Part shown: positions 5,601 to 64,000 of the stretch, piece after piece
Layout: every line of letters begins with the position of its first letter
How positions within the stretch are numbered: the first letter of the stretch is position 1
DNA from: Candidatus Woesebacteria bacterium
GTDB lineage: Bacteria; Patescibacteriota; Microgenomatia; UBA8517
Direction: 5' to 3'
Assembly: GCA_016700095.1 (NCBI GenBank)
Contig: CP065002.1
Coordinates: 368,463 to 432,462 of the forward strand
Length of the DNA: 64,000 bases
The notes under the pieces: generated by a model
Databases searched by the model: none
The model's input: only the letters and a program-made list of their open reading frames with translations
What the model was told of the DNA's origin: nothing
Made by a program: the position numbers and the translations under genes

Positions 5601-8600
5601 TGCCTGTGATATTAACATCACCCACATTGGCATTATCTGTAATGGTCATTAGATCATTACCCGAGGTATCTTCAAAGGTTAGAGTACCTGTTGTACTTTC
5701 AAACATCCTTACTCCATCAAAGAGTAAAAAGTTTGCATCAAGGTCAAGTGCTGTAACAATATCAGTATCACTTAAATCAATACCTGTTGTTATCCCTCCT
5801 GCTTCACTTACAAAGGAGAGACCAGTTGCTACTGCCGTATCCGTATCTGAATTATCAAGGACAAGTAGAGCTTCGGTTGCCCCACTACTTGCTGCATTAT
5901 CAATTACCAATCCGTTTTGAGTACCACTTGAGCTGGCATTGGTTAAAGTAAGGGTAGTGGAGTTGGCATTTGCTGTTCCACTAAGAGCCTGGTTTACTGC
6001 GAGTAAACTATCCGAATCAAGAGTAATTGTCAGGTCATCGGTTCCAGCCGGTGTAAACCCTACATTACCTGTAAAGGTAAAATCATAGTCCTGGTTAACA
6101 GCAACATCATCTGCATTAACGGTAATGCCATTACCTGCTCCAACGGTAAAGGTGGTATCACCATCTGCACCGACAAGGACATTATCTGCTCCACCTGTAA
6201 GGCCACTTCCTGCAACTGCGTCACCTAGTAGCCTTACTGTAAAGTCAAGGTTTTCATCACCATCATCACCGTTAGTTAGATTGGTTAGTATATTGCCATC
6301 ACTACTGGTGAACCTTAAGATGTTGGCATCCACAACAGAGTAGGTATCAGTATCATCATCGGCTATCGTCCAGGAAGAGAAAGCACTTACACTGGTTGTC
6401 CATCCGCAGTTGGTTTCAGAAACATCGCAGACCAAATCATCTCCCCAGTACAGATCTCCCGATGCACTTCCTGCTGAAGCTGCATTGAAGCCAAAGACAT
6501 TGTCAGTATCTGCATCACTGTTTAGGCCGAGGGTGGTTCCGTATACAGAAAGGGTTGAAGTAAAGACTCCCGAACCGTTTACGGTGAATAGATTGTCAGC
6601 AAATGAGAGAAGATCTAAATCTGAACTTAATCCAATATTTGTACCATCAACCGTTAAAGAATCAATATTTAACTGAGTTCCTGTTATAACCCCTGCTGTT
6701 GTGATAGTCGCATTTGTTCCACCGACAGTAAAAGAAGCGTTTGTAACGTCGAGGCCGTTTTCGGCATCTACGTTACCTGAAAAACTAACTTGACCGGTTG
6801 AATTAAAATCAAGCGCGCCTGTACCAAGCGTTGATAGTGTCAAAGCACCAAGATCAATACTTGTAGCACTATCAAGAGAAAGAGTATCCGACAGTTCAGT
6901 GAAATTTAAGATATCATCGGCGATTGTTACGTTGGCTTCGTTGGCAGGGGAAGCTGTGACTGAGAAATCGGATGAAAAATCTATAGTATCCACGTTTACA
7001 CCTACAGTGCTGTCATTGTTTTCTATATTGACGATTGCAAATGCTGCACCGGAATCAGTTGAACACTCCCATGAGTCGTTTGCCTCATTCCATTTTAGAA
7101 CTTCACCATTTGCACATCCTTGCAGTAATCCAATTCCTCCGGCAAATACTTCCAGTCCAGATCCATTACTTACAGTTGAAGAAAGTCCATTTGTGGCTGT
7201 AATAGTTTGTATGGTCAACGCATTCGCACTAAGCGTCAAACCATCACCGGTGAAATCTGAAATAGTTTCCGAGTTAATAGTGATATCTCCTGCGATTTCT
7301 AGATTTCCACTATTATCTACGTCAAACAAATTATTACCCAGACTGTCCTCAAAAACGACCAGATCGCTTGATTGGGTACTATTGCCTTGTACAAGTAATT
7401 GAATTTCGTTAGAATCGCCGTCGATCGCTAATTTTGACGATAGGGAAGAATTGCCACCAATAATTACTTCGTCTGTTGTATTGTTTAAATAAATGAAACC
7501 GGTTTGTTGTGACCATTTTGAACTTCCGGCGCCAATCGCGGCATCCAAGTCATCAAGCACATCTTGGACATTTGTGCCTGAAGAATTAGCGAATTCAGCA
7601 AAAACTCCCACAAGTGAAGCGCCTGACATGTCTTCGTCTGATCCGGTATCGTTCAAACCGATTAAACCAATAGTTACATCTTGTCCTGAAGCAATTGTAA
7701 CTCCACCGACATCGGTGGTTATGCTGTCTGCAGTCAGGCTGTCTTGGATATCCACATTGCCTCCGGCGTTTATTGTTAACGTGGCTCCGTCGGCGGTAAT
7801 CATATCTCCATTTACCGCAAGATTACCGGTGATCGTCAAATCTCCGGCACTCTCATCAAAAAACAAAGCGGCGGTCGAATCGAGACCACCTATTGCAAAG
7901 TCATCTGTGAGACTTGTAAGGTAAGTAACTGTACCTGCGTCAGTAAAAAGGGAACTGGTTCCGGTTTTATCCTCTGCCCATGTAAATGTGCCTGTTGCGG
8001 AATTGTATGTTAGCACCTGATTGTCGGATGGGGTATTGGTTACCGACAGATGTCTGACAGTTATAGCTTCATCAGATATTTCGGATGATTCGACAGTATC
8101 ACCTATAACAGTTTCCAGAACATTATTAATTACTTGTAAGCCTGTACCTGTAAAATCGGCGATTGTATCTTGAGATAGCGTAAGTGAAGCTCCAATTTCT
8201 AACTCCCCAGAAACAAAAAAATCGCCGTTGGCGAGGTCTATTGTTGGAATTCCTGTACCTATAGTGACACCTCCACCTCCTGGATCGATAATTATGTCAC
8301 TAACCGATGTAATTGTATTGCCGGATAGATTCAATACTCCACCGATATCTAAGTTGCCATCAACACTGGCATCATTTTTTAAATTTGTTTTTACATAAAC
8401 ATTGAAAGACTGATCTGCGATAGATTGACTAGTCAAAGCTAGTACTTTGCTTTCTTTGTTTATGCTTTGTTTATCCATGCTTGCAATACGCACGGGGAAA
8501 ACCCTTGTCATTGTTTCGTTTATGTTTTTCTTTACCGCATTTGGAGTGATATGGCTTATTATTTTTATAGAGCTTAATGTAAGAAGTAATACTCCGGCTA

Positions 8601-8910
8601 AATATAACATTTTTTTAATCACTCTTTTTTGGTCAATTTGTAGGCTTGAATATATTTGAGGCGATGCAAGAGTTGACGTTCTTGAAGCCATTGGGATATA
8701 TGAATTAACAATTCGCAATTTTTTGTTCTTCTTTGGCTTAATTGATAAAAGCTGAGCTTTTGAATAGCGTCTATGTTTTCCTGAAGTACGGGTGGGAATA
8801 AGTATGTTTCGTTGTTCCCACCTCCTTAAAGTTTTTTGAGAAACTTTTAGAAACTTAGCGGCTTCTTGGATTGTTAAATCAGATGAAAATTTAGAATCGG
8901 GCAGTGTCAT
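1..8910 (-). CDS. Giant repetitive cell-surface protein (at least 2970 aa in window; C-terminal end lies beyond window start). N-terminal HTH_17/excisionase-MerR-like motif, one TM helix, then a G/T/S/D/N-rich beta-solenoid-like repeat region
   Basis: Hand reverse-translation from ATG at 8910..8908 gives MTLPDSKFSSDLTIQEAAKFLKVSQKTLRRWEQRNILIPTRTSGKHRRYSKAQLLSIKPKK..., then MLYLAGVLLLTLSSIKII (TM, Met at 8610..8608), then NKESKVLALTSQSIADQSFN... An in-frame stop lies upstream at 8940..8938. Spot checks at 1-60, 3001-3060, 4441-4500, 7021-7080 and 8161-8220 found no minus-frame stops. No minus ORF appears in the track, consistent with a run-off ORF. Confidence 0.75.
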   Translation of the reverse strand, partial: MTLPDSKFSSDLTIQEAAKFLKVSQKTLRRWEQRNILIPTRTSGKHRRYSKAQLLSIKPKKNKKLRIVNSYIPMASRTSTLASPQIYSSLQIDQKRVIKKMLYLAGVLLLTLSSIKIISHITPNAVKKNINETMTRVFPVRIASMDKQSINKESKVLALTSQSIADQSFNVYVKTNLKNDASVDGNLDIGGVLNLSGNTITSVSDIIIDPGGGGVTIGTGIPTIDLANGDFFVSGELEIGASLTLSQDTIADFTGTGLQVINNVLETVIGDTVESSEISDEAITVRHLSVTNTPSDNQVLTYNSATGTFTWAEDKTGTSSLFTDAGTVTYLTSLTDDFAIGGLDSTAALFFDESAGDLTITGNLAVNGDMITADGATLTINAGGNVDIQDSLTADSITTDVGGVTIASGQDVTIGLIGLNDTGSDEDMSGASLVGVFAEFANSSGTNVQDVLDDLDAAIGAGSSKWSQQTGFIYLNNTTDEVIIGGNSSLSSKLAIDGDSNEIQLLVQGNSTQSSDLVVFEDSLGNNLFDVDNSGNLEIAGDITINSETISDFTGDGLTLSANALTIQTITATNGLSSTVSNGSGLEVFAGGIGLLQGCANGEVLKWNEANDSWECSTDSGAAFAIVNIENNDSTVGVNVDTIDFSSDFSVTASPANEANVTIADDILNFTELSDTLSLDSATSIDLGALTLSTLGTGALDFNSTGQVSFSGNVDAENGLDVTNASFTVGGTNATITTAGVITGTQLNIDSLTVDGTNIGLSSDLDLLSFADNLFTVNGSGVFTSTLSVYGTTLGLNSDADTDNVFGFNAASAGSASGDLYWGDDLVCDVSETNCGWTTSVSAFSSWTIADDDTDTYSVVDANILRFTSSDGNILTNLTNGDDGDENLDFTVRLLGDAVAGSGLTGGADNVLVGADGDTTFTVGAGNGITVNADDVAVNQDYDFTFTGNVGFTPAGTDDLTITLDSDSLLAVNQALSGTANANSTTLTLTNASSSGTQNGLVIDNAASSGATEALLVLDNSDTDTAVATGLSFVSEAGGITTGIDLSDTDIVTALDLDANFLLFDGVRMFESTTGTLTFEDTSGNDLMTITDNANVGDVNITGNLSVDGTTLGLNDDADTDNVFGFNAASAGSASGDLYWGDDLVCDVSETNCGWTTSVSAFSSFTVAGDSGGGQEIADSNTLSIIGGTNGIDTVDSTVDTVTINLDTTEIGTTTFGSGSAITWTYNASGGVDTSLGFGDNTILATTNNFNFTGAIDIQGGNITLQNDETISNSINSEVSLADGTNTLTFDFDEDSATAIDLTTNGSVDLTFNPGGNVGIGTRTPSGDLHVVDSDTSNIIISTTASTGANYLGIEFHDSTGAKLAQFVSEPTDDTFHGKGSFLIDYNGEDFGGIFAIRRDPDTTDYTIFADADGNVGINNSNPEALFDIKGNEAEDATFILDADEGDDIADTWTLTSVATDNDLTFTNGTTEVLSLTSAGNMQVDGTFEAYGNTLGLNSDADTDNVFGFNAASAGSASGDLYWGDDLVCDVSETNCGWTTSVSAFSSWTIADDDTDTYSVVDANILRFTSSDGNILTNLTNGDDGDENLDFTVRLLGDAVAGSGLTGGADNVLVGADGDTTFTVGAGNGITVNADDVAVNQDYDFTFTGNVGFTPAGTDDLTITLDSDSLLAVNQALSGTANANSTTLTLTNASSSGTQNGLVIDNAASSGATEALLVLDNSDTDTAVATGLSFVSEAGGITTGIDLSDTDIVTALDLDANFLLFDGVRMFESTTGTLTFEDTSGNDLMTITDNANVGDVNITGNLSVDGTTLGLNDDADTDNVFSFNAASAGSASGDLYWGDDLVCDVSETNCGWTASSGSSKWSVNTTPTPDVTYLTETAYDLAIGGSDGEAPLFIDVSASALNLNPFGASAGNTGEVRFQELEANGDNYTGFKAPDVLAGNVIYTLPTADGGNQQVLSTNSNGVLSWIDVSAGSGGYTGWNIDGDDSDTRSIGSGETLIIQGGTNGINTDVSDTTDTITLNLDTTEIAGSTFGAGSDFTWTFNTSGATDPSLDFGDNDLDVNVALTTFSGNVAIDGNTLGLNSDADTDNVFSFNAASAGSASGDLYWGDDLVCDVSETNCGWTTSVSAFSSWTIADDDTDTYSVVDANILRFTSSDGNILTNLTNGDDGDENLDFTVRLLGDAVAGSGLTGGADNVLVGADGDTTFTVGAGNGITVNADDVAVNQDYDFTFTGNVGFTPAGTDDLTITLDSDSLLAVNQALSGTANANSTTLTLTNASSSGTQNGLVIDNAASSGATEALLVLDNSDTDTAVATGLSFVSEAGGITTGIDLSDTDIVTALDLDANFLLFDGVRMFESTTGTLTFEDTSGNDLMTITDNANVGDVNITGNLSVDGTTLGLNDDADTDNVFSFNAASAGSASGDLYWGDDLVCDVSETNCGWTTSVSAFSSWTIADDDTDTYSVVDANILRFTSSDGNILTNLTNGDDGDENLDFTVRLLGDAVAGSGLTGGADNVLVGADGDTTFTVGAGNGITVNADDVAVNQDYDFTFTGNVGFTPAGTDDLTITLDSDSLLAVNQALSGTANANSTTLTLTNASSSGTQNGLVIDNAASSGATEALLVLDNSDTDTAVATGLSFVSEAGGITTGIDLSDTDIVTALDLDANFLLFDGVRMFESTTGTLTFEDTSGNDLMTITDNANVGDVNITGNLSVDGTTLGLNDDADTDNVFSFNAASAGSASGDLYWGDDLVCDVSETNCGWTTSVSAFSSWTIADDDTDTYSVVDANILRFTSSDGNILTNLTNGDDGDENLDFTVRLLGDAVAGSGLTGGADNVLVGADGDTTFTVGAGNGITVNADDVAVNQDYDFTFTGNVGFTPAGTDDLTITLDSDSLLAVNQALSGTANANSTTLTLTNASSSGTQNGLVIDNAASSGATEALLVLDNSDTDTAVATGLSFVSEAGGITTGIDL
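3341..4440. repeat. Dispersed copy (about 1.15 units) of the 954-bp module inside the giant gene
   Basis: Offset 2715 from copy 1: 3296..3817 matches 638..1102 and 4022..4240 matches 353..571. Similarity starts at gtccatccgcagttgg (3341) and diverges after the ...SASLFRPRVFP-equivalent near 4440. Confidence 0.85.
5419..6545. repeat. Dispersed copy (about 1.15 units) of the 954-bp module inside the giant gene
   Basis: Offset 4818 from copy 1: the tail of 4892..5920 matches 638..1102 and 6125..6343 matches 353..571. It diverges near 6545. Confidence 0.85.
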
Positions 8911-9756
8911 GATAATTTTTATACTATGAGATAATATTTATTTTTGTTATTTATAATTAATAAAACTTAGACAAATATATGTATATATAGCTTTAAATGT
9001 CTATATTTATTAAGACAGATAAGTAAATTATTGTCAAGCCTAAAGTGTCTACTAAAAATAGGATAATATAAACCGCAAAATACATACAGAAAATACGTGA
9101 TGACATTTGATGTATTTAGTAAGTATTGGATGAGGTGTTTTTAAAGGTTTTTATCAAAAATACTACATCTAACCAATAATTTAGTGCTGACATATCTTAG
9201 AAATCAAATTAGAGAACACTAAGATAGTGCGTGAATTAAAAATGCATATATAATTATTATGTTAAAAATAGGCATAAAAGGAGAGGTTTATTAACAATTA
9301 ATTATATAAAACGCATAATATAAGCACAATAAACGCAGTTATTGCCAGACTTTATGTAATGCGGTAATTATATTGCAGGCACATTATTATTTATTTAGAT
9401 ATATATACCGCGGATATTGCAGTAATAATATATATCGTGAAATACTTCTCTGCCTCATACGGTAATTTGTATATACACGACATAATAAATAGAATATAGG
9501 ATATTATAAGGCTAATATTATAAATATTTTAGTATGCGGAAATATTATTTTATAGTATTGATTGAAAATACATCCCATCAAACATGTATTAGATATTTGA
9601 CCTATCGGTAAAACTATTTAACAATAGAGTAGGATTTAAGTTATGGGAAATTCAAAATATATAGGCCGATTTGTTTTTATTTCTTTTTGAGTTAGATATA
9701 TAAATACATTGCAAGGAAAAACAAAATGCAATAAACGACATTTTGTTTTAGTATGA

Positions 9757-32675: not shown

Positions 32676-32704
32676 AAGATTAGCGGCGGGGCGGGATGCA
32701 GGGG

Positions 32705-33474
32705 TGCAGGGTCCAACCCTGCAGACACGTTATTAATCGATTGACAACTCTTTCGACAAAGCAGGTGGTTCAAGATCGTTCATGAAGTTTTGATACGTAT
32801 TGTTTGATTTAATTTCAGTGAGTTTGGATTTCGAGAATATAGATAACACAATCTCTGGTTTAATCCAACTTCTTTTGCTCATTCCCAGATAATCAGAACA
32901 TGAAGAGTGCCAATTCGAAATGTCGGTAACAATTCCACGAGGATTTAAATGAATATATTTGGTTAGGTGGAGCAAGTATATGTCATTTTCGACAAGTGAA
33001 GCTCGATAATTACTTTGAAATAAAGTACCAACACGACTATATTTTTTATTAAAATACATTGAGTATCTTGTGGTTATAGAATGCATGAATTTTTCCATCG
33101 AATTTCTTAATTCTTGTCTAATTAATAAATGAAAGTGATTGGGCATCAAACAATATGAGATTAAATCAATCTCTTTTTCAAAGTTTTGAGGAAGTCGTTT
33201 GGGCACATCAAAACCATCAATATGTTGATGATATGGGGGAGTTAATGCTTCGACAAGGAGACAAGTGAACTTTTTGTAATCACTCGGGTCTAAAAATATA
33301 CTTCTTTTTTCTACACCACGGTTGTATACATGGTAATAGCTGTGGTCAGCATAAACTTTGACTACATTTCTTCGCGGCATCTCTTTGGTACTTTCATGTT
33401 AAATCAATATGTTAAGTAGTGCAACATATTACGATGGGGTGCAGGGTCCAACCCTGGCAGGGTTGGACCCTGCA
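32705..33474 (-). mobile_element. REPtron-like unit: Y1 HUH transposase gene flanked by REP hairpins (single REP 3' of the gene, inverted REP doublet 5' of it)
   Basis: tgcagggtccaaccctgca at 32705..32723 (hairpin: stem gcagggt/accctgc, loop cca). Doublet tgcagggtccaaccctg + gcagggttggaccctgca at 33440..33474. Transposase CDS 32733..33380 lies in between. Confidence 0.7.
32733..33380 (-). CDS. Y1 HUH transposase, IS200/IS605 TnpA / REP-associated tyrosine transposase (RAYT)-like
   Basis: MPRRNVVKVYADHSYYHVYNRGVEKRSIFLDPSDYKKF...LISYCLMPNHFHLLIRQ (HuH motif)...FMHSITTRYSMYFNKKYSRVGTLFQSNYRASLVENDIYLLHLTKYIHLNP matches the Y1 transposase family pattern; 215 aa. Confidence 0.8.
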   Translation of the reverse strand: MPRRNVVKVYADHSYYHVYNRGVEKRSIFLDPSDYKKFTCLLVEALTPPYHQHIDGFDVPKRLPQNFEKEIDLISYCLMPNHFHLLIRQELRNSMEKFMHSITTRYSMYFNKKYSRVGTLFQSNYRASLVENDIYLLHLTKYIHLNPRGIVTDISNWHSSCSDYLGMSKRSWIKPEIVLSIFSKSKLTEIKSNNTYQNFMNDLEPPALSKELSID

Positions 33475-33715
33475 GACTGCAGACAAAATACATACTGTGA
33501 GGCGGCAAGAGTACTTGAGCCGGGAGGACTTCTTATCCTGAACCGTATCGGAACAGAAACTACACACGAAGCACTTGCTGCAATGAATGGACTAAAACTA
33601 GTTTGACAAGATACCAGACCAGATACGATGTCTCGTGATGCAGTATTTATCAAACCCCTCGAAACTTTTCCGCATGAGGTATAAATACTGTTAGTACTAT
33701 AGACTTTTGTAAAAT

Positions 33716-33988
33716 ATGTTAAATGTGTTAGAATATGATTCCCTCCTTAGAATAAAGTGCTTAACTAAAAACAATATGCCTGAAAGATTGACGGAAGAGG
33801 AGTTAGTGTCCTTAAGAGATAAAGCCACCAAAGCTGCGTGTGATAGTTGGCAAACTGCTGTGGTTGGTGGCGAAATTGTAGTTGGGTATGCGGTCCCGAC
33901 TACTAGGCAGTATTCATTGGAGAAAGAACGACAATATGGATTAAGAAGGAAAGTCCCGGAACCCGAACCTCCAATTTACACAGAGTAA
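33716..33988 (+). CDS. Hypothetical small protein
   Basis: 90 aa (likely start at the internal MPERLTEEEL); no family recognised. Confidence 0.3.
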   Translation: MLNVLEYDSLLRIKCLTKNNMPERLTEEELVSLRDKATKAACDSWQTAVVGGEIVVGYAVPTTRQYSLEKERQYGLRRKVPEPEPPIYTE

Positions 33989-34634
33989 GTGATTGAAAGC
34001 GTTTAAAATATAAAATAATTTAATATCATATATAATTCCTAATGACACTTATTGAGCCAATTCCTTTAGCCAATAAAACACGGCTAGCAACAAGCAAACA
34101 AAACACAAGATCCCTCGACTGTCGCTTGAGATGACAATCTAGTAATGTTTGAGACGAAAAACCAAAAACACTCGAGATGATATAGGTTGTTATATTGACC
34201 GTTCCTTTTGTCATTTCGACCAGCTTCATTTTGTTATTCTGAGGTTTCCTTTTGTCATTTCGGCCACAAATGGAGAAACTTAATTACATAACTTCCATTA
34301 ATTGCAAAAACATTGCTTACCTTCGTTTTACCTGTGGGTTTACTTGTTCTTCCTTAGGTGGATGGGAATTGTGATTTACCTGTTTATATCTTTCTATTGG
34401 AATAATCCGACTTCCTTCGTGTCCGCCATCTTGTCGTTTAATAGGATTTTTGCCACGTTTATCACAATACAATGGTTGTCTTGCTAAATCTAAATCTGGT
34501 GTCATATAACCCATAATATCAATTTATGGGAAATAATCAATTCTTGATTGGCTTGTAAAGGTGTAATAAAATCAATTTTTGGTAGCTTATAATATATTTA
34601 ATATTAGTGAGTGAAACGGAGCATTGGTTTGCAT

Positions 34635-34668
34635 GCAGGGTCCAACCCTGCCAGGGTTGGACCCTGCA
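34635..34668. repeat. REP-A inverted doublet (tgcagggtccaaccctg c cagggttggaccctgca)
   Basis: Same 17-nt hairpin unit as at 32705 and 33440, in head-to-head orientation; lies between small ORFs in an intergenic region. Confidence 0.85.
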
Positions 34669-34767
34669 CCCGCACCCCCAGCTTGTATATTTTGTACACT
34701 ATGCGTAATTTGCCTAATTCGTCGTTTGTTTGTAAAATACTGTTTATAAGTGTGAGGAGGTGATTAT

Positions 34768-39208: not shown

Positions 39209-39258
39209 TTCCAACCCCGGGGGTTGGAACAGCCTCAAAACAACCCCGGGGGTTGGAA
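39209..39258. repeat. REP-B element: palindrome ttccaaccccgggggttggaa + 11-nt spacer + caaccccgggggttggaa
   Basis: Near-perfect palindromic 21-mer (stem ttccaacccc/ggggttggaa) repeated after cagcctcaaaa. An almost identical 50-nt element is at 63662..63711. Its end lies 8 nt from the 3' end of tRNA-Pro. Confidence 0.85.
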
Positions 39259-39266
39259 ATTTTGTG

Positions 39267-39338
39267 TCGGGGACCCGGGAATCGAACCCGGAGTCTCTCG
39301 ATCCCGAACCGAGCGCTCTACCATTAAGCCAGTCCCCG
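39267..39338 (-). tRNA. tRNA-Pro (anticodon CGG)
   Basis: Manual fold of the reverse complement: acceptor CGGGGAC/GTCCCCG (C1:G72, A73, typical of bacterial tRNA-Pro); D stem GCTT/GAGC; anticodon stem CTCGG/TCGAG with loop TTCGGGA; T arm CCGGG-TTCGATT-CCCGG; 72 nt; CCA not encoded. Confidence 0.85.
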
Positions 39339-40369: not shown

Positions 40370-40601
40370 AGTTTAGCAATTAGAATTTAGAGTTTGGGAA
40401 TTAGAAATTGAGAGTAAAATAGTGCAATTAGAGTAATTAGATACTATTAATCACAAAGGTGGTACCCTTTAGATAAATAATTTGGAGTACTGAATTTATA
40501 GCGGATTCAAAGAAGTTCTGGGGTCAGACAAAGTACTTAATTTCTTCCTTCTTGCAATAATGTTTCTGAGAAATTAGAATACAATCTTGTGACAAAATTA
40601 A

Positions 40602-40805
40602 ATGGTAAATATAGAATTATTGGCCAAACAAGGGCAAAAAGCTGATGAATATGCGCAAAGAGTAACAACCCGCAAAGGACCTGGTGACCCTGTTCCTGGA
40701 AAAGATTTCCTTAGATTATCTGATCGAGACGCACGCAGGAAAACCGGTTTAACTACGATAGAGAAAGTAGAACCTAATGTTATAATTTTTAGAAGCCCCA
40801 AGTAA
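40602..40805 (+). CDS. Hypothetical small basic protein
   Basis: 67 aa; a 67-aa minus-strand ORF overlaps the same span, so orientation is uncertain. Confidence 0.25.
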   Translation: MVNIELLAKQGQKADEYAQRVTTRKGPGDPVPGKDFLRLSDRDARRKTGLTTIEKVEPNVIIFRSPK

Positions 40806-40859
40806 TTCTTGTTAATAATTTACGACAATAATTATTCATTAATTGAATTTGCAATCTTA

Positions 40860-40875
40860 CCAGGGCTGGACCCTG
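40860..40875. repeat. Degenerate single REP-A copy (ccagggctggaccctg, 1 mismatch)
   Basis: Matches cagggttggaccctg except t->c; marks the left edge of the higher-GC island. Confidence 0.6.
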
Positions 40876-41143
40876 TAATTCTGCTATACCTGTAATCTTG
40901 AAAAACGCTAGAGATTTAATATTTGTTTATTTAAACTTCCCGAAAACCGTGGATGATTAGACCACGGATGAAGGGAAGCAGGAAACAAACTTTTCGAAGA
41001 AAATCGAGGGTTCTCAATTTGTTTATTATCGACTAGAAGGTCTAGATTACTTAGGCCAAGTGATGTCGCTAGTGATAGATATTAAAGCAGTAATAAATCT
41101 TGTGTAGTTACTAGCCACAAACGGGACTTGATTTTCGAGTTTC

Positions 41144-41362
41144 GTGTTTTGTATAATTCGCTTTATGACTATTTCAGAAAATGGTAGACAAGCCATTTTG
41201 GTTTATAAAGATGGGCGATTACCAAAAGTCAAAGGTGTCCCGCAGTTGAGATGGACACCTGAAGTAATAAAAAATTTTACAATCTCAACTGAATTTAACA
41301 TGGAAGATAGAGGTCCTAATAGTGATTTTCAACCTAGAATAAGTGGTGAAGAGAGATATTGA
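41144..41362 (+). CDS. Hypothetical small protein
   Basis: 72 aa; probably starts at the internal MTISENG; no family recognised. Confidence 0.3.
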   Translation: MFCIIRFMTISENGRQAILVYKDGRLPKVKGVPQLRWTPEVIKNFTISTEFNMEDRGPNSDFQPRISGEERY

Positions 41363-41384
41363 TTATTTGTAGTACAATAGATAT

Positions 41385-41564
41385 ATGGCACAAGAAACTA
41401 TAGAACCAGATGTTTGGACACCTGTTGTGAAGACAGCGCAACAAATAGGTGAAGCCATTAAAGATACATTGGAAATTAAACCGCATATTGGAACCGGTAA
41501 AGCCGGGAAAAGGAGTGAAAAAGTACCAGCCCCCGAGGTGAAATTACCTGGACAAAAGCAATAG
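41385..41564 (+). CDS. Hypothetical 59-aa protein (MAQETIEPDVWTPVVKTAQQIGEAIKDTLEIKPHIGTGKAGKRSEKVPAPEVKLPGQKQ)
   Basis: Hand-translated; co-oriented with its neighbours. The competing minus ORF 41363..41569 is probably a shadow. Confidence 0.2.
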   Translation: MAQETIEPDVWTPVVKTAQQIGEAIKDTLEIKPHIGTGKAGKRSEKVPAPEVKLPGQKQ

Positions 41565-41763
41565 ATCAATCTCGATTATTTGCACTAGGCTTCAAATTGG
41601 AAATTGTAATAATCAAGGTAAAGGTAAAAAAACTCCAACCACATCACGCTTGGGTCCCAAACCGCCAGAGAACCGACAACGTTGAGGTTGATGGAATTTA
41701 AAGCCTATTAGCGCTAAATTGTACTTCCAATAATTCTGATATATAATATGCTCCTATAGTAAT

Positions 41764-42240
41764 ATGATTGAAAGACCGGTACAGGATTTGCCAAATTATA
41801 ATCAGACACCCCCTTTTGAACCTATTGTAGTCGAAGTAGGAGTAACAGGTGGTGACTTAGTCAGATATGAACGCTTATGTGAACCTACACCTGATATGCG
41901 TGGACCGATATCCTATCTATCAAATGCACAACCCCATGCCACTGTTTCCATGGAGATGCATGACTTTTCGAGTCTGTCCGTGAAGGCTCCAACAGCAGGT
42001 TTTGTAAATATGGACTCACACGCAAGTCCTGTTTTACAGGATCAAGAACCCATGACAATGTGGGAATTTGCACAAGTGGTGGGGAAACTTGGCGTAAATG
42101 GATTAGTCAGACTTGTACAAAAGGGTATGGGTAGTTACGAAAAACACAAAGATATTTGGTTGACTGTGGGTGCGATTAGTGCTGGTAGTGTTGCCTTTAA
42201 ATGGTTCTTGAGAAAAATGCACGGCATGGCTTGGGAATAA
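41764..42240 (+). CDS. Hypothetical protein with a C-terminal hydrophobic segment
   Basis: 158 aa; C-terminus ...IWLTVGAISAGSVAFKWFL; GC noticeably higher than the flanking genome. Confidence 0.45.
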   Translation: MIERPVQDLPNYNQTPPFEPIVVEVGVTGGDLVRYERLCEPTPDMRGPISYLSNAQPHATVSMEMHDFSSLSVKAPTAGFVNMDSHASPVLQDQEPMTMWEFAQVVGKLGVNGLVRLVQKGMGSYEKHKDIWLTVGAISAGSVAFKWFLRKMHGMAWE

Positions 42241-42243
42241 TAT

Positions 42244-42777
42244 ATGAAAGATAGATCGCCTTTGATTAATTTTTTCGGAAATGTAACTGCGTTGGCAACA
42301 TACGGTGTTGGTGTTTTTTTTGGTACTGATACCCAAGTTTCCCAACAACCACCCTATGGAAGTGAACCACAAGTAACACACCAAGTGGGACAAGTAGAAC
42401 AATTGCAAGATTGCACGTTAGGGAATTTAAATCCTGGGGCTCAGTCGGTATTTCTGTCGTGGATGGACGTTGTTGGCAGAGATGGTATGCAACGTATTAT
42501 TCAAAATGGAGGGCTTCCGACAATGGGAGGCGATTCTGCCGAAAAATGTCCACGAGAAGAAACGATTGATTTGACCGTGGATGATTTTCTTGCGGGTGTG
42601 GATGATCGTGAGATGGCTGCATTACATAATCAGTTAGAACAAAACAAACCCATTGTGACAACAGATGGAAAACGGGAACCGTTATTCCCCCCTTTCTTTG
42701 GGTTGGGTATGGCATTTGCTTGTGGAGGATTAATATATATAGGACTAAAGGTCCGACAAAGTGAAGGAGATTATTAA
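42244..42777 (+). CDS. Novel tail-anchored protein, paralog 1 (FGTDxQVSQQPPYGSEPQ family)
   Basis: MKDR...YGVGVFFGTDTQVSQQPPYGSEPQ...IIQNGGLPTMGGDSAEKC...GLGMAFACGGLIYIGLKV (C-terminal TM); 177 aa. Confidence 0.55.
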   Translation: MKDRSPLINFFGNVTALATYGVGVFFGTDTQVSQQPPYGSEPQVTHQVGQVEQLQDCTLGNLNPGAQSVFLSWMDVVGRDGMQRIIQNGGLPTMGGDSAEKCPREETIDLTVDDFLAGVDDREMAALHNQLEQNKPIVTTDGKREPLFPPFFGLGMAFACGGLIYIGLKVRQSEGDY

Positions 42778-42781
42778 TAAT

Positions 42782-43516
42782 ATGAAAGATAGATTGGGAG
42801 AGTTAATAATATTTGCAAAGAATGTACCGACCTTTATTGCATATGGGTCTTCTGTTTATTTTGGTACTGATGCCCAAGTTTCCCAACAACCACCCTATGG
42901 AAGTGAACCACAAAATCCACACCATACAGTGCAAGTGGATGCGGGAGATGAAGATGGACAAAATATATCTGCGCAGGTAGAGCCGACTCCTAATCCAGAT
43001 AGATGCAGGGCAAGTAATTTAGACTCTGAGGCATTAAGAACTTATCTTGCATGGAGAACAACTGTGGGTGGGGATAAGGAGAAGATTCAGGAAATAATCG
43101 ACAATGGAGGTTTATCCACAATGGGAGGAAATTCTAGTGAAGTTTGTAAACCGGAAGTAGTGCCAGAAGTAACAGTATTTGAAAATATGACTTTGGAGGA
43201 AATGCAAGCCAGGGTTGCAAGAGATTTGCAACATCAGATGGATGAACATAAAGCACCTAATCCTTATATACTACCGGCAATATGTGGAGGAGCTGTGTCT
43301 GCTGTGGCGTTAGTTGCTGGGTATATTGTGATTAAAAAGGCATATAAGAACGCACCCAATATGACTCCGGGGGATGAGTATAGAGAACCTAAACATGGTG
43401 GTAGGGTTGCTAGAACTGATGTGACTGAGGCTCAAAGGACAGATACAGATCCGCTTGAATTATGGAGTAGTTTTATAAATTCAATAGGCAGAAGACCTTC
43501 AGATGAGAATGACTAA
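42782..43516 (+). CDS. Novel tail-anchored protein, paralog 2 (tandem duplicate of 42244..42777)
   Basis: Same ATGAAAGATAGAT start as paralog 1; YGSSVYFGTDAQVSQQPPYGSEPQ...IIDNGGLSTMGGNSSEVC...AICGGAVSAVALVAGYIVIKKAY. The track ORF starts at 42761, but the internal ATG at 42782 is preferred. Confidence 0.55.
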   Translation: MKDRLGELIIFAKNVPTFIAYGSSVYFGTDAQVSQQPPYGSEPQNPHHTVQVDAGDEDGQNISAQVEPTPNPDRCRASNLDSEALRTYLAWRTTVGGDKEKIQEIIDNGGLSTMGGNSSEVCKPEVVPEVTVFENMTLEEMQARVARDLQHQMDEHKAPNPYILPAICGGAVSAVALVAGYIVIKKAYKNAPNMTPGDEYREPKHGGRVARTDVTEAQRTDTDPLELWSSFINSIGRRPSDEND

Positions 43517-43847
43517 TACTTCTTGTTTAACGGGTCTCCTTCATTGATTCTGTTCTATTTGCGTGTCTATCTTCCGGGCTACCTGAATATGCTGATTGTG
43601 GCGCCTGTATTGATGTAGTGGAAGCAATAATAACATCGCTCCTATTACCGATAGCTACAACCCCTCCAGTATTAGTTGGCTCTACACCCATAAGATTTTC
43701 AACATATTGTTGTTTAGTTTCATTCGTTCTTGGGGGAAGATCGTGTTGTCTATCAGCTGTCATAGTGGAATTATAACTATCCTGAGGGAGAAATGCAAAA
43801 CAATAGTTAAGATTGTAATCAGGTTATGTTTTATATATCCTTAAACT

Positions 43848-44330
43848 ATGGACAAAGGAACAAATCTTGTCGATCAGCCTCAAGTACCGGATAAATTACA
43901 AACGGAAATACACGCCGAGGAAGATTCGGAAAAAAACGAATCACATACAATTGTAAATACCCAGCGGACTTACAAGTTACCTTTTGTCATCGTGACTTTA
44001 CTATTCGTACTTTTTTGTGCGTCAAGTGTTTATCTATTTATCCAGAACAACAATCTGACAAATCAGAGAGAATCTTTGGATGCAAAATTAACTAGTTACG
44101 ATACGGATGTTGTTGCCGCACAAAATGAAGCGGAGAAATATCAACTAGAATACGATGAATTGGTAGGAGAGGTAAATGGCTATTTGCGGGAAATGGGAGT
44201 AATTTGCTCGGGAGATAAAATTGATTGTCTGGCAAATTACAGCAAGGAAAACGTCGCGACAGGTTCTTCTAATTTAGATATGAACGAAGCAAATACGTCA
44301 ACTTCTTCAGGGAAATTAGATGGTAATTAA
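43848..44330 (+). CDS. Hypothetical membrane-anchored coiled-coil protein
   Basis: TM LPFVIVTLLFVLFCASSVYLFI followed by a helical region with a QNEAEKYQLEYDELVGE heptad-like pattern; 160 aa. Confidence 0.45.
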   Translation: MDKGTNLVDQPQVPDKLQTEIHAEEDSEKNESHTIVNTQRTYKLPFVIVTLLFVLFCASSVYLFIQNNNLTNQRESLDAKLTSYDTDVVAAQNEAEKYQLEYDELVGEVNGYLREMGVICSGDKIDCLANYSKENVATGSSNLDMNEANTSTSSGKLDGN

Positions 44331-44396
44331 ATAGTAATGATGGTAGGGGATGGGATTTATAATTTGGCTGTTGGGGTTAAGTAATTGGAGTAGGAA

Positions 44397-44456
44397 TGAT
44401 TGCAGGGTTGGACCCTGCAGTTGTGGAATTATTGATTGCAGGGTTGGACCCTGCAG
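44397..44456. repeat. REP-A direct doublet: tgattgcagggttggaccctgcag x2 separated by 12 nt
   Basis: Copies at 44397..44420 and 44433..44456, both in ttgg-loop orientation; 16 nt from the 3' end of tRNA-Arg. Confidence 0.85.
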
Positions 44457-44471
44457 CTGTGCTGCTAATAG

Positions 44472-44543
44472 TGCCCTCGGCAGGAATCGAACCTGCAGCT
44501 AGCCCTTAGGAGGGGCTTGTTTTATCCATTAAACTACGAGGGC
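44472..44543 (-). tRNA. tRNA-Arg (anticodon CCU)
   Basis: Manual fold of the reverse complement GCCCTCGTAGTTTAATGGATAAAACAAGCCCCTCCTAAGGGCTAGCTGCAGGTTCGATTCCTGCCGAGGGCA. Acceptor 7 bp; D stem GTTT/AAAC; anticodon stem AGCCC/GGGCT with loop CTCCTAA; T arm GCAGG-TTCGATT-CCTGC; 72 nt. Confidence 0.85.
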
Positions 44544-59950: not shown

Positions 59951-60328
59951 ATGGTGATTACGTCAAATGCAGGTAAGTTAAAGAAAAATTTTCAGGATCG
60001 TCTGTATAATTTTGTGTTGAAGCTAACCAATTTTATTGGTTCATTAAATGAGCGTGATATGATTACAAAAGTCATATCAAATCAATTAGCACGCAGCGGA
60101 ACAAGTATTCTGAGTAATTACGTTGAGGGAAAATCAGCAAGTAGCAGGAAAGATTATATAAATTACTTTAACCACTCTCTTAAAAGCGCAAATGAAAGCA
60201 AGATATGGATAAGCTTACTTAGAGATACAAATAAATGCGAGTCGAAAGAAGCTTTAATGTTAATGACAGAACTTGAAGAAATTTCAAAGATTTTTGCTTC
60301 AAGTATAATAACATTGAAAAGAAAATAA
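59951..60328 (+). CDS. Four-helix-bundle protein (23S rRNA-intervening-sequence protein family)
   Basis: ...NQLARSGTSILSNYVEGKSASSRKDYINYFNHSLKSANESKIWISLLRD matches the family pattern (DQL.RSA.SI.ANIAEG....S.KDF..FL.IA.GS..E...WL.L). Confidence 0.7.
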   Translation: MVITSNAGKLKKNFQDRLYNFVLKLTNFIGSLNERDMITKVISNQLARSGTSILSNYVEGKSASSRKDYINYFNHSLKSANESKIWISLLRDTNKCESKEALMLMTELEEISKIFASSIITLKRK

Positions 60329-61742: not shown

Positions 61743-62615
61743 ATGAAAGTTAAACTGATTACAACTTTGCAATCAATCGAGATGCAGAGACTAAAAGACG
61801 AAACGTGTGCGATGGGGCACGAATGTGACCTTGTTGATTTGAGCAAATTTACTTTTTCGATTCGAGACACTAAGTTGTCGATTGACAATCTGGGTAATCC
61901 TAATCCCGATGTGGTTGTCGTTAAAGGAGTGACAGTCAACAAAGCTCCGATTGTTGCTTTAATTCACGACTACAGAAAACGAGGAATAAAAGTATTCGAC
62001 AACAACTATTGTGAGCATCAATACACAATAAATAAGGTAACCGATCTAATTAAATTATCTTTGAATAATGTTCCTATACCCGATACTTTCCATTGTCACG
62101 ACTTTGATGAGTTTTACCGAGCATGCGAAATAGTGGGTTATCCGGCGATTGTTAAATTAGTTGGAGCCGGAAAGGGCGCCGGTGTTTTTAAGGCCGATAA
62201 TAAGGAAAGGTTGGCGGAAATCATTTCAAACGCACAAAACGACATGCTTAAATCAGCCTCAAGATTTATCGTCCAGCAATATATTCCTTACGAACACGAT
62301 TTGCGAGTCCTTATTATTGGCGAAAAATTATTTGTGATGAAGCGAATTCCGGGCGAAGGTGAATTTCGTGCTAATTTTTCACTCGGTGGATCGGTTGAAA
62401 CTTTCGAACTTGACGACGAGGGAAAGGAACTGGCGAAGCGAGGTTTGGCTGCGGTTGATATGTCTGTCGCCGGAGTAGATTTACTTATAACCAAAGACAA
62501 CAAGCGTTACGTCTTGGAGGTTAACCATACCCCCGGATTTGTCGGAATGGAAAAGGCAACGGGTGAAAACATTGCACGAATTTACATGGAGCATGCGATT
62601 GGTAATGCATATTAA
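61743..62615 (+). CDS. RimK-like ATP-grasp ligase, paralog 1
   Basis: GYPAIVKLVGAGKGAGVFKA...DLRVLIIGEKLFVMKRIPGEGEFRANFSLGGSVE...VDLLITKDNKRYVLEVNHTPGF. Confidence 0.75.
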   Translation: MKVKLITTLQSIEMQRLKDETCAMGHECDLVDLSKFTFSIRDTKLSIDNLGNPNPDVVVVKGVTVNKAPIVALIHDYRKRGIKVFDNNYCEHQYTINKVTDLIKLSLNNVPIPDTFHCHDFDEFYRACEIVGYPAIVKLVGAGKGAGVFKADNKERLAEIISNAQNDMLKSASRFIVQQYIPYEHDLRVLIIGEKLFVMKRIPGEGEFRANFSLGGSVETFELDDEGKELAKRGLAAVDMSVAGVDLLITKDNKRYVLEVNHTPGFVGMEKATGENIARIYMEHAIGNAY

Positions 62616-62620
62616 GTATT

Positions 62621-62726
62621 TGGTAGTTGGTAGATGGTAGATAGTAGATGGTAGTAGATAGTAGATGGTAGATGGTAGATGGTAGATGGTAGATGGTAGA
62701 TAGTAGATGGTAGATGGTAGGTAGGT
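62621..62726. repeat. Imperfect heptanucleotide microsatellite (TGGTAGA/TAGTAGA)n, about 15 units
   Basis: tggtagttggtagatggtagatagtagatggtagtagatagtagatggtagatggtagatggtagatggtagatagtagatggtagatggtaggtagg. It begins 6 nt after the stop of 61743..62615 and ends 40 nt before the ATG of 62767. Confidence 0.9.
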
Positions 62727-62766
62727 TCAAGTATTAAGTAATTAGTCCTTAGTCATTTGCAAATTT

Positions 62767-63657
62767 ATGAAAATTTTAATCGCAGGATTAGTTAATAATT
62801 CACAACTAACACGTCTTCAGGAAGAAGGGGAAAAACGCGGTCATCAAGTTGATGGATGTTATTCTACTGACTTAATACTTAATGCGCAAAACGACGAATT
62901 CAAAGTTCATTTAATCGGTAAAAATATTACTTCGTATGACCTTATCTATTTGTGGGCGGTAAGCAAGCGTCGCTGGGAATGGTACACGGCTTGTTATTAT
63001 TTATCTCAACAGGGAAAAAAAGTAATAAACGCCAAAGTGGTTGATCCTTCCTATATATACTATCTTTCACCAGCGATGGATTATCTGAGGCAAACAGAGA
63101 ATGCTATTCCCTTTCCCAAATCAGCAATTTTATTGACGGAATCTGCGGTTGATGAGATTGCGGGACAGTTCGAATTTCCCGTTATAGTAAAAACCGCTTC
63201 AGGCAGGCAGGGGAAAGGTGTGTTTAAAGCAGACTCTCCTGAAAAAGTAAAAGAAATTATCGGCAATCTAAAAAACGTGTCGATGTCGTTTGTTGTTCGG
63301 GAATTCATTCCAAACGATGGAGATATACGTGTTTTTACAATTGGATACAAAGCACTTGGAGCAATGAAGCGAACACCACAGAAGGCGGGGGAATTTCGAA
63401 GTAATATAAGCCAGGGAGGAATTGGAACTAAGTTTAACCTGGATAATTACCCGGAAATAAGATTATTGGCCGAGAAGTTAAGTAAAGTAACCAAGACAGA
63501 AATTGCAGGTGTCGACATCATGTTGCATCAAAACAGTCAAAAACCGTATGTACTTGAAATTAATCCTGGTCCGCAGTTTAGTGGATTTGAAAAGTATACA
63601 AACATAAATGCAGCAGAAGAAATTATTAAGTATTTTGAAGAGATTGTAGCAAAGTAA
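62767..63657 (+). CDS. RimK-like ATP-grasp ligase, paralog 2
   Basis: FEFPVIVKTASGRQGKGVFKA...DIRVFTIGYKALGAMKRTPQKAGEFRSNISQGG...VDIMLHQNSQKPYVLEINPGPQF. Confidence 0.75.
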   Translation: MKILIAGLVNNSQLTRLQEEGEKRGHQVDGCYSTDLILNAQNDEFKVHLIGKNITSYDLIYLWAVSKRRWEWYTACYYLSQQGKKVINAKVVDPSYIYYLSPAMDYLRQTENAIPFPKSAILLTESAVDEIAGQFEFPVIVKTASGRQGKGVFKADSPEKVKEIIGNLKNVSMSFVVREFIPNDGDIRVFTIGYKALGAMKRTPQKAGEFRSNISQGGIGTKFNLDNYPEIRLLAEKLSKVTKTEIAGVDIMLHQNSQKPYVLEINPGPQFSGFEKYTNINAAEEIIKYFEEIVAK

Positions 63658-63661
63658 GTAA

Positions 63662-63711
63662 TTCCAACCCCGGGGGTTGGAATAGCCTCAAAACAACCCC
63701 GGGGGTTGGAA
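63662..63711. repeat. REP-B element (ttccaaccccgggggttggaa + tagcctcaaaa + caaccccgggggttggaa)
   Basis: 49/50 identical to the element at 39209..39258. Starts 5 nt after the stop of 62767..63657 and lies 54 nt upstream of a Y1 transposase start. Confidence 0.85.
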
Positions 63712-63764
63712 GTGAGAAAATTCTTCATATTGGTGATTTGTTTTGCGTGATATATTATTTATTT

Positions 63765-64000
63765 ATGCCAAAGAGACAACAGCCGTTGGTAAGCGGTTAT
63801 TATTATCATGTCTTTAATCGTGAACCCAACAGAAAGGTTACGTTCACTTCGCCAGATGAGTATGAGCGTGCAAAAATAACACTCTGGTATTATCAATTTC
63901 AACATCTACCTGTTTGTCTTTCTACGCTTTTGAATAAAATGCCTGATTGTGACAGAAAACGAATTACAAACGAGCTAAATATTAAAGACGAAAGAAAAGT
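63765..64000 (+). CDS. Second Y1 HUH (IS200/RAYT-like) transposase, 5' part only (runs off the window end)
   Basis: Hand translation MPKRQQPLVSGYYYHVFNREPNRKVTFTSPDEYERAKITL... parallels MPRRNVVKVYADHSYYHVYNRGVEKRSIFLDPSDYKKF of 32733..33380. Confidence 0.6.
   Translation, partial: MPKRQQPLVSGYYYHVFNREPNRKVTFTSPDEYERAKITLWYYQFQHLPVCLSTLLNKMPDCDRKRITNELNIKDERK

Follow-up and report, generated by a model that had tools for sequence, protein, structure and literature searches.

The right end of a 64-kb stretch of a Candidatus Woesebacteria genome (64,000 nt of contig CP065002.1, the window in what follows) carries a 50-nt double hairpin just upstream of an open reading frame (ORF) that is cut by the window end. 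We read this copy, copy B (63662..63711, plus strand), as the upstream flank of a second REPtron-like unit, in which a Y1 transposase gene of the kind of the REP-associated tyrosine transposases (RAYTs) is flanked by repetitive extragenic palindromes (REPs). The other copy, copy A (39209..39258, plus strand), would be a dispersed copy that now lies at the 3' end of a tRNA-Pro gene. We put the probability of this reading at about 0.72.

What is observed is a duplicated and sharply bounded double hairpin, its place upstream of a Y1-type ORF, and a pairing of gene and hairpin across the protein family. The enzymatic steps are borrowed from work on Escherichia coli TnpA-REP and on IS608 and ISDra2 (PMC3333891, PMC3479197, PMC8266576). 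By analogy, the structure recognised by the Y1 enzyme would be the hairpin as it folds in a single DNA strand, such as the lagging-strand template, and the catalytic tyrosine would cleave and rejoin the DNA next to the hairpin. Such cleavage and rejoining would place hairpin units, copied or moved, at further intergenic sites, giving copies or doublets, and the Y1 gene itself would remain single-copy and vertically inherited.

Two copies of a double hairpin

The 21-nt palindrome TTCCAACCCCGGGGGTTGGAA occurs exactly at two sites in the window, 63662-63682 and 39209-39229. In copy B this first unit has 10-bp arms around a central G and is followed by an 11-nt linker (TAGCCTCAAAA) and by a second unit, which has its core at 63694-63708 and reaches 63711. 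The second unit is truncated on its left (AAACAACCCCGGGGGTTGGAA, 63691-63711 and 39238-39258, 29 nt on from start to start) and is an 18-nt palindrome with a 7-bp stem. The first-pass annotation had described the element as two near-perfect 21-nt palindromes separated by 11 nt; the linker and the duplication are as described, but the second unit falls short of the full 21-mer. The two 50-mers are identical at 49 of 50 positions, the sole difference being T/C at the first linker base, and the four cores, at two loci that are both intergenic, are identical.

Neither the 21-mer nor the 15-nt core has further sites in the 64 kb when up to three mismatches are allowed, confirming that the copy next to tRNA-Pro is the only other one in the window. 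The expectation from shuffled sequence was 0 matches for the 21-mer (100 shuffles) and 0.7 for the 15-nt core. The right edge of the repeat is abrupt. On the left a weak resemblance continues for about 9 nt (59 nt at 93%), and beyond the repeat the sequences flanking copies A and B are unrelated. With two copies to compare, the sign of a target-site duplication or conserved insertion motif amounts to a loose AGTnnGTAnT on the left. As single-stranded DNA the element folds with −19.8 kcal/mol (z −5.9 against shuffled controls), and as RNA it folds with z −4.4. The only strong GC-rich palindromes in 56 kb of the window are those of this family (family 2) and of a second one, family 1, which is described below. 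An Rfam scan of the window returned two tRNAs only and no match at the doublet. The family-2 hairpins have the plus-strand feet GTAAT/GTATT and the minus-strand feet CTCAC/AAAAT.

A Y1 gene, a probable second Y1 gene, and two related repeat families

The ORF begins with the ATG at 63765. The doublet lies upstream of it as annotated, and the gap is 53 nt (63712..63764, plus strand) rather than 54. This spacer contains TTGGTG...TGATATATT, which is promoter-like when read by eye and was not called by a consensus scan. The frame (MPKRQQPLVSGYYYHVFNRE..., 63765..64000, plus strand) is open for 78 codons up to the window end, which lies about 10-15 codons short of the expected HUH (histidine-hydrophobic-histidine) motif. 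By comparison with relatives the motifs are expected at residues ~88-92 (HuH) and ~148-153 (the tyrosine, Y---NP), and the visible product ends at residue 78.

A phmmer search with the 78-aa fragment against 1.84 billion representatives gave 52 matches at E<=1e-3, the best at 8e-11. Nearly all homologues were aligned from residue 1 or close to it, and the full-length ones are 219-230 aa long. All ten full-length homologues that were scanned pass the Pfam cut-off for Y1_Tnp (PF01797), with the motifs (L/M)PNH(F/Y)HL and RYIHLNP near residues 88 and 148. Y---NP is the signature of class 2 TnpA-Y1 (PMC6006769). The cut ORF is thus very probably the N-terminus of a RAYT-like Y1 transposase, judged by its homologues, as the first-pass annotation had proposed. 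The top phmmer match (P0001, 2045 aa, nine stretches) was rejected as a relative, being a low-complexity tandem-repeat artefact. Among viral contigs the fragment found no confirmed relative, and a full-length query found one weak relative.

A profile search placed more than 7,829 members in the family at E<=1e-10 among the matches listed, with a typical size of about 224 aa; the few named members come from Curtissbacteria and Gottesmanbacteria. The best match of the family profile among solved structures is E. coli TnpA-REP (4ER8, E 1.2e-5), and ISDra2 TnpA (2XM3) is second. The NCBIfam model NF047646 (REP_Tyr_transpos) is matched by 32 of 32 members tested and the IS200 model NF033573 by 1 of 32. 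The fragment scores 81 bits against the family profile, which contains the fragment itself, so this score is not independent. It keeps the invariant residues Y14 and H15 and the nearly invariant M1, R4, N18, and Y43.

The other Y1 gene of the window (32733..33380, minus strand) encodes a RAYT-like protein of 215 aa (QQS39338.1, annotated "transposase") with the motifs HFH and YIHLNP. The suggested parallel between the two N-termini is real, since 13 of 37 residues are identical (E 2e-5). Over a comparable N-terminal stretch the two proteins are 29-35% identical, and the second gene is therefore an old paralogue and not a recent copy. These two are the only Y1 ORFs in the window, and neither has a near-identical copy there.

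The first Y1 gene carries the family-1 palindrome on both flanks, as an inverted doublet upstream (33437..33474, centre TCCAACCCTGGCAGGGTTGGA) and as a unit immediately downstream (32698..32723). The order of doublet, spacer, and ATG is alike at the two genes, with a spacer of 56 nt at the first and 53 nt at the second. Family 1, with the foot TGCAGGG, has five loci and one degenerate unit in the window. They include a dispersed inverted doublet (34634..34671), a direct doublet with a 36-nt period (44397..44456, minus strand), which lies 14 nt 3' of a tRNA-Arg gene, and the degenerate unit with three mismatches (40860..40876, minus strand). As a separate observation, the two perfect 38-nt inverted doublets at 33437-34671 are 100% mutually complementary and enclose 1,159 nt in which all ORFs are short.

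When the family-1 inverted doublet, TGCAGGG[TCCAACCCTGGCAGGGTTGGA]CCCTGCA, is set against family 2, T[TCCAACCCCGG--GGGTTGGA]A, the cores share 15 invariant columns (CAACCC, G, GGGTTGGA), with a 2-nt gap and one substitution. The common 8-mer TCCAACCC occurs 13 times in the window, solely at these elements, against 1.8 expected. As judged by their sequences, families 1 and 2 are not independent, and the common core suggests that they probably diverged from one ancestral hairpin alongside two paralogous enzymes. The earlier proposal of two distinct REP families, each with its own Y1 paralogue, therefore needs revision. Its association of the hairpin with this kind of gene stands, but the families are less distinct than proposed.

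Hairpins beside related Y1 genes

Among seven relatives, six (L001, L021, L023, L024, L025, and L027) have a similar GC-rich hairpin on both sides of the Y1 gene, and in all of these except L001 it is the same genome-specific hairpin on both flanks. In L026 the repeated palindrome was seen downstream only, and its 262-aa gene call may start too early. L021 has many further hairpin copies within 20 kb. Nine flank hairpins were chosen by eye, two from the family-2 doublet of the window and seven from relatives. They have six invariant positions, and none of them lacks any of the inner seven pairs. Three of these pairs show compensatory changes, and a fourth shows one-sided changes of the wobble type. 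The pairing is true by construction, since palindromes were chosen, but the common sequence is not.

An exact search for the 21-mer in one genome per species (185,579 species, 596 Gb) gave one match, where about 0.3 would be expected by chance. It lies in a metagenome-assembled genome (MAG) labelled Candidatus Omnitrophota (JAMWCK010000080.1, L001), within a complete REPtron-like unit (4100-4860). The unit has a 218-aa Y1 gene with HLH and RYIHLNP, a family member at E 1e-74. The exact 21-mer is downstream, 13 nt past the Y1 stop (TTCCAACCCCGGGGGTTGGAAGTGGTTGAAAAG), and a 20/21 copy is upstream, 36 nt before the ATG (TTCTAACCCCGGGGGTTGGAATTGGTTGAAAG). In two relatives that have the operon found upstream of copy B (7TM-transglutaminase / ATP-grasp / RimK / RimK; 7TM, seven-transmembrane) and no Y1 gene after RimK, no GC-rich palindrome was found in 20 kb.

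A scan of metagenome contigs with an 18-mer gave 19 single matches, about the chance expectation. An extended-arm palindrome (ACCTTTCCAACCCCGGGGGTTGGAAAGGT) occurs once each in the unrelated metagenome contigs L015, L016, L020, and L002/L012/L018; it is intergenic, with no Y1 gene in the stretch examined. These palindromes could be dispersed copies in other genomes or convergent terminators.

L023 and L024 have orthologous Y1 genes at one locus, with the mraZ cluster on one side and cupin/GlyRS on the other. Their GlyRS proteins are 91% identical and their Y1 proteins 68%, without gaps. Two compensatory pair changes, seen on both flanks, distinguish the flank hairpin of one (TCCACTTCGGGAGTGGA) from that of the other (TACACCTCGGGGGTGTA). 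This divergence at a shared locus indicates that the gene was inherited vertically and that the enzyme and its hairpin changed in step where they stand. The first-pass annotation had suggested co-evolving transposase-REP pairs, and the co-divergence in L023 and L024 supports this in part.

The vertical inheritance argues against an ordinary insertion sequence. An autonomous element of the IS200/IS605 type, with the hairpins as its subterminal ends and the tRNA-Pro copy as a solo end or a miniature derivative, is very unlikely, even though several relatives carry directly oriented flanking hairpins no more than ~10-100 nt from the gene, like IS200 ends, and the site after RimK varies among relatives. 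Against these stand a family profile that is closer to TnpA-REP than to IS200-type TnpA, window paralogues at only ~29-35% identity with no third copy, and the in-place divergence of the L023/L024 orthologues. Moreover, 12 of the 12 90%-identity clusters of the family that were looked up hold one or two members. Low copy number, divergent paralogues, and vertical inheritance, which are features of RAYTs, are found both in the two Y1 ORFs of the window and in the synteny of L023 and L024.

Another feature of the flanks was seen in L021 (9920-10000), L024 (9940-10000), and L027 (9955-10000), where the upstream hairpin is followed after 4-5 nt by a half-site, TTGACACCTCGG. Read by eye, the TTGACA of the half-site has a TATTAT- or CATAAA-like hexamer 16-17 nt downstream. 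The resemblance of this arrangement to a promoter of the Y1 gene itself hints at autoregulation.

It is possible, though we hold it with more doubt than confidence, that a very large and mostly CPR-borne (Candidate Phyla Radiation) clade of RAYT-like enzymes, passed on vertically, relies on a single conserved type of hairpin, approximately CA(C/A)C(C/T)(C/T)C-G-G(G/A)(G/A)G(T)TG, often followed by a half-site that overlaps the -35 box of the gene. An identical 21-mer stands beside proteins of only 33% identity in Woesebacteria and in an Omnitrophota MAG. If this reading holds, the system would be unlike the species-specific GTAG-tagged REPs of Proteobacteria. A REP/RAYT-like system would then persist in ultra-small genomes, regulate itself, and supply tRNA genes with 3'-end hairpins.

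Several points weigh against reading copy B as the flank of a second REPtron-like unit. The status of family 2 as a dispersed REP family is minimal, as it rests on two visible loci, and the canonical REP foot GT[AG]G is absent from both families. The 78-aa fragment has no match in Pfam or NCBIfam, because those models start near the HUH strand. Two members of the family score 43 and 46.5 bits against NF047646, below its equivalog cut-off of 80 bits. The Y1 protein of L001 is only 33% identical to the fragment despite the same palindrome, so hairpin and N-terminus track each other loosely. The first Y1 enzyme might also act on family 2, since the cores coincide. Finally, the second Y1 gene could be truncated, as its HUH motif, tyrosine, stop, and downstream flank would fall outside the window; P0003 and P0010 are examples of family members that lose HUH through truncation or a frameshift.

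Some of these points would suit a relic REPtron, whose second Y1 gene is truncated or dead and whose doublets are leftovers or a sub-family on which the first Y1 enzyme (32733-33380) still acts. The window end cuts the gene, and one enzyme for both families is plausible because the palindrome of family 2 corresponds to the middle of the inverted doublet of family 1; in E. coli one TnpA-REP handles the REP types Y, Z1, and Z2 (PMC6006769). NRE also stands in the fragment where most of the family has NRG, but this glycine varies in intact members too (NRS in L001). The 78 visible codons contain no stop and keep the invariant and nearly invariant residues, the geometry of doublet, spacer, and ATG is preserved, and four identical cores in doublets that match at 49 of 50 positions point to a recent copy or to constraint. 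A word-index search with the fragment found no candidate sharing three 5-mers. It also missed P0006, a cluster representative in the same collection that has five consecutive 5-mers in common with the fragment, so for such a short query the empty result is not evidence of absence. We regard a relic as unlikely and prefer copy B as the flank of a second REPtron-like unit.

Neighbouring genes and comparison with known systems

Both copies of the double hairpin begin 4-7 nt past a gene end. Copy A is found 7 nt past the 3' end of tRNA-Pro(CGG) (39266..39338, minus strand). A RimK-type ATP-grasp gene (62767..63657, plus strand), which is 100% identical to QQS39371.1, has its stop 4 nt ahead of copy B. 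On the minus strand at copy A, the first hairpin met is followed by TTTT, which suits termination of tRNA-Pro, and a scan called a terminator-like site on this strand. The elements might thus be ordinary terminator hairpins, with their adjacency to a Y1 gene coincidental. We consider this highly improbable, as independent terminators would not match over 49 of 50 nt including an 11-nt linker. On the plus strand after RimK there is no T-run behind the hairpin, the RimK 3' regions of relatives lack such hairpins, and nearly all other genes in 56 kb are without GC-rich hairpins. Moreover, this 21-mer also stands beside a Y1 gene in a lineage that differs at the phylum level. Terminator function is compatible with the REPtron-like reading as a secondary use, and the inserted hairpins probably also form 3' ends or terminators for neighbouring genes. 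The two tRNA genes seen here, tRNA-Pro and tRNA-Arg(CCT) (44471..44543, minus strand), each have a direct REP-like doublet within 7-14 nt 3' of them, one from each family.

Four other proteins of the window, including that of the first Y1 gene, are in the same Candidatus Woesebacteria record as QQS39371.1, which makes this a chromosome of the CPR/Microgenomates. LeuRS, ArgRS, and iPGM are also among the window genes. At 59951-60328, a gene for a four-helix bundle (QQS39368.1) lies inside the otherwise conserved 7TM-transglutaminase / ATP-grasp / RimK / RimK operon, and L028 and L029 have no counterpart there. The two RimK genes are separated by a run of 7-nt GGTAGAT-like repeats (62602-62734), and in relatives these genes abut or overlap. 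In L029 (1-520) tRNA-Arg is directly between the TP_methylase and PEGA genes, whereas the corresponding region of the window (40370-44470) has about 4 kb of extra small genes, including the paralogous ORFs 42244-42777 and 42761-43516 and the repeat D13. This extra segment is bounded by family-1 units at 40860 and 44402/44438. At the left end of the window (1-8937, minus strand) is an open frame of at least 2,979 aa that runs past the window end. It starts with a MerR/excisionase-like helix-turn-helix and continues with tandem repeats of 954 nt (318 aa) whose identity reaches 100%. The GC content (~43%) and GC skew of this region are unlike the rest of the window.

REP/RAYT work has so far been almost wholly on Proteobacteria, plus a few other phyla with complete genomes. 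The published surveys covered the complete genomes of their time and leave CPR lineages unmentioned, and one 2026 preprint has a K07491 match, in an archaeon only. In a full-text literature search with RAYT/REP terms and CPR names, no study of CPR RAYT/REP systems was found, and this host group (CPR/Woesebacteria) appears unreported for RAYT/REP pairs. The system adds another, somewhat unusual case to the known REP/RAYT kind, here from an ultra-small genome, and shows no new mechanism. REPtrons, atypical non-GTAG flanks, and TIRtrons were already described (PMC3333891, PMC3686654, PMC3733652, PMC6006769), and several cognate RAYT/REP pairs per genome are established (PMC6006769, PMC3733652). 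Of the suggestion that such pairs are known in Proteobacteria and new in this kind of genome, what appears new in the papers searched is the host group, but multiple pairs in one genome are not new in themselves.

The present case adds a 1.27-Mb Candidatus Woesebacteria genome with two such genes and related hairpins, whose relatives form a family of thousands. Streamlined genomes thus keep these elements, possibly through hairpins that double as 3'-end structures. If the second gene is intact, the family would offer compact and diverse pairs of enzyme and hairpin, with natural compensatory changes, for studying how non-GTAG hairpins are read.

Among the closest known systems is the E. coli REPtron (TnpA-REP, 4ER8; PMC3333891, PMC3479197, PMC8266576), where a Y1 HUH gene in single copy has GC-rich extragenic palindromes on its flanks. 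These palindromes are also found at other sites, often as doublets behind genes. The family shares the class 2 signature Y---NP as well. The E. coli system differs in several respects. The GT[AG]G guide is absent from the hairpin feet here, and the family-2 doublet is a direct tandem, unlike the inverted doublets of REPINs (REP doublets forming hairpins) and BIMEs (bacterial interspersed mosaic elements). E. coli TnpA-REP has 165 aa as against about 224 aa in this family, which stays below the NCBIfam equivalog cut-off. The GTAG contacts of TnpA-REP are W94, E100, H101, and R104 (PMC6006769). In the profile alignment W94 of 4ER8 and the counted positions E100, H101, and R104 correspond to F, A, V, and E in the family consensus, which is consistent with both window families having no GT[AG]G foot.

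Divergent RAYT paralogues with their own palindrome types and vertical inheritance are also found in Pseudomonas fluorescens and Stenotrophomonas maltophilia (PMC3116915, PMC3686654, PMC6006769). In contrast to those pairs, the host here is a 1.27-Mb CPR genome and the two hairpin types have a common core. In a 2018 survey, Y1 genes outside insertion sequences were mostly found in larger genomes (PMC6006769).

TIRtrons (PMC3733652) are similar in that RAYT-like genes have non-GTAG flanking repeats that form moderately abundant families. Their repeats are inverted and non-GTAG, some are self-complementary, and they are found as dimers; genomes with two TIRYT genes and two repeat families were also described (PMC3733652). 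In a comparison of the repeats, the TIRtron consensus GGGGWSAS is not matched here, the closest strings being GGGGTTGG in the window and GGGGTGTA in L024. The IS200/IS605 elements (IS608 and ISDra2 TnpA; 2XM3) share the Y1 HUH fold family and subterminal hairpins recognised in single-stranded DNA. They differ from the genes described here, of which 1 of 32 members tested matched the IS200 model and which have no near-identical copies and are inherited vertically in synteny.

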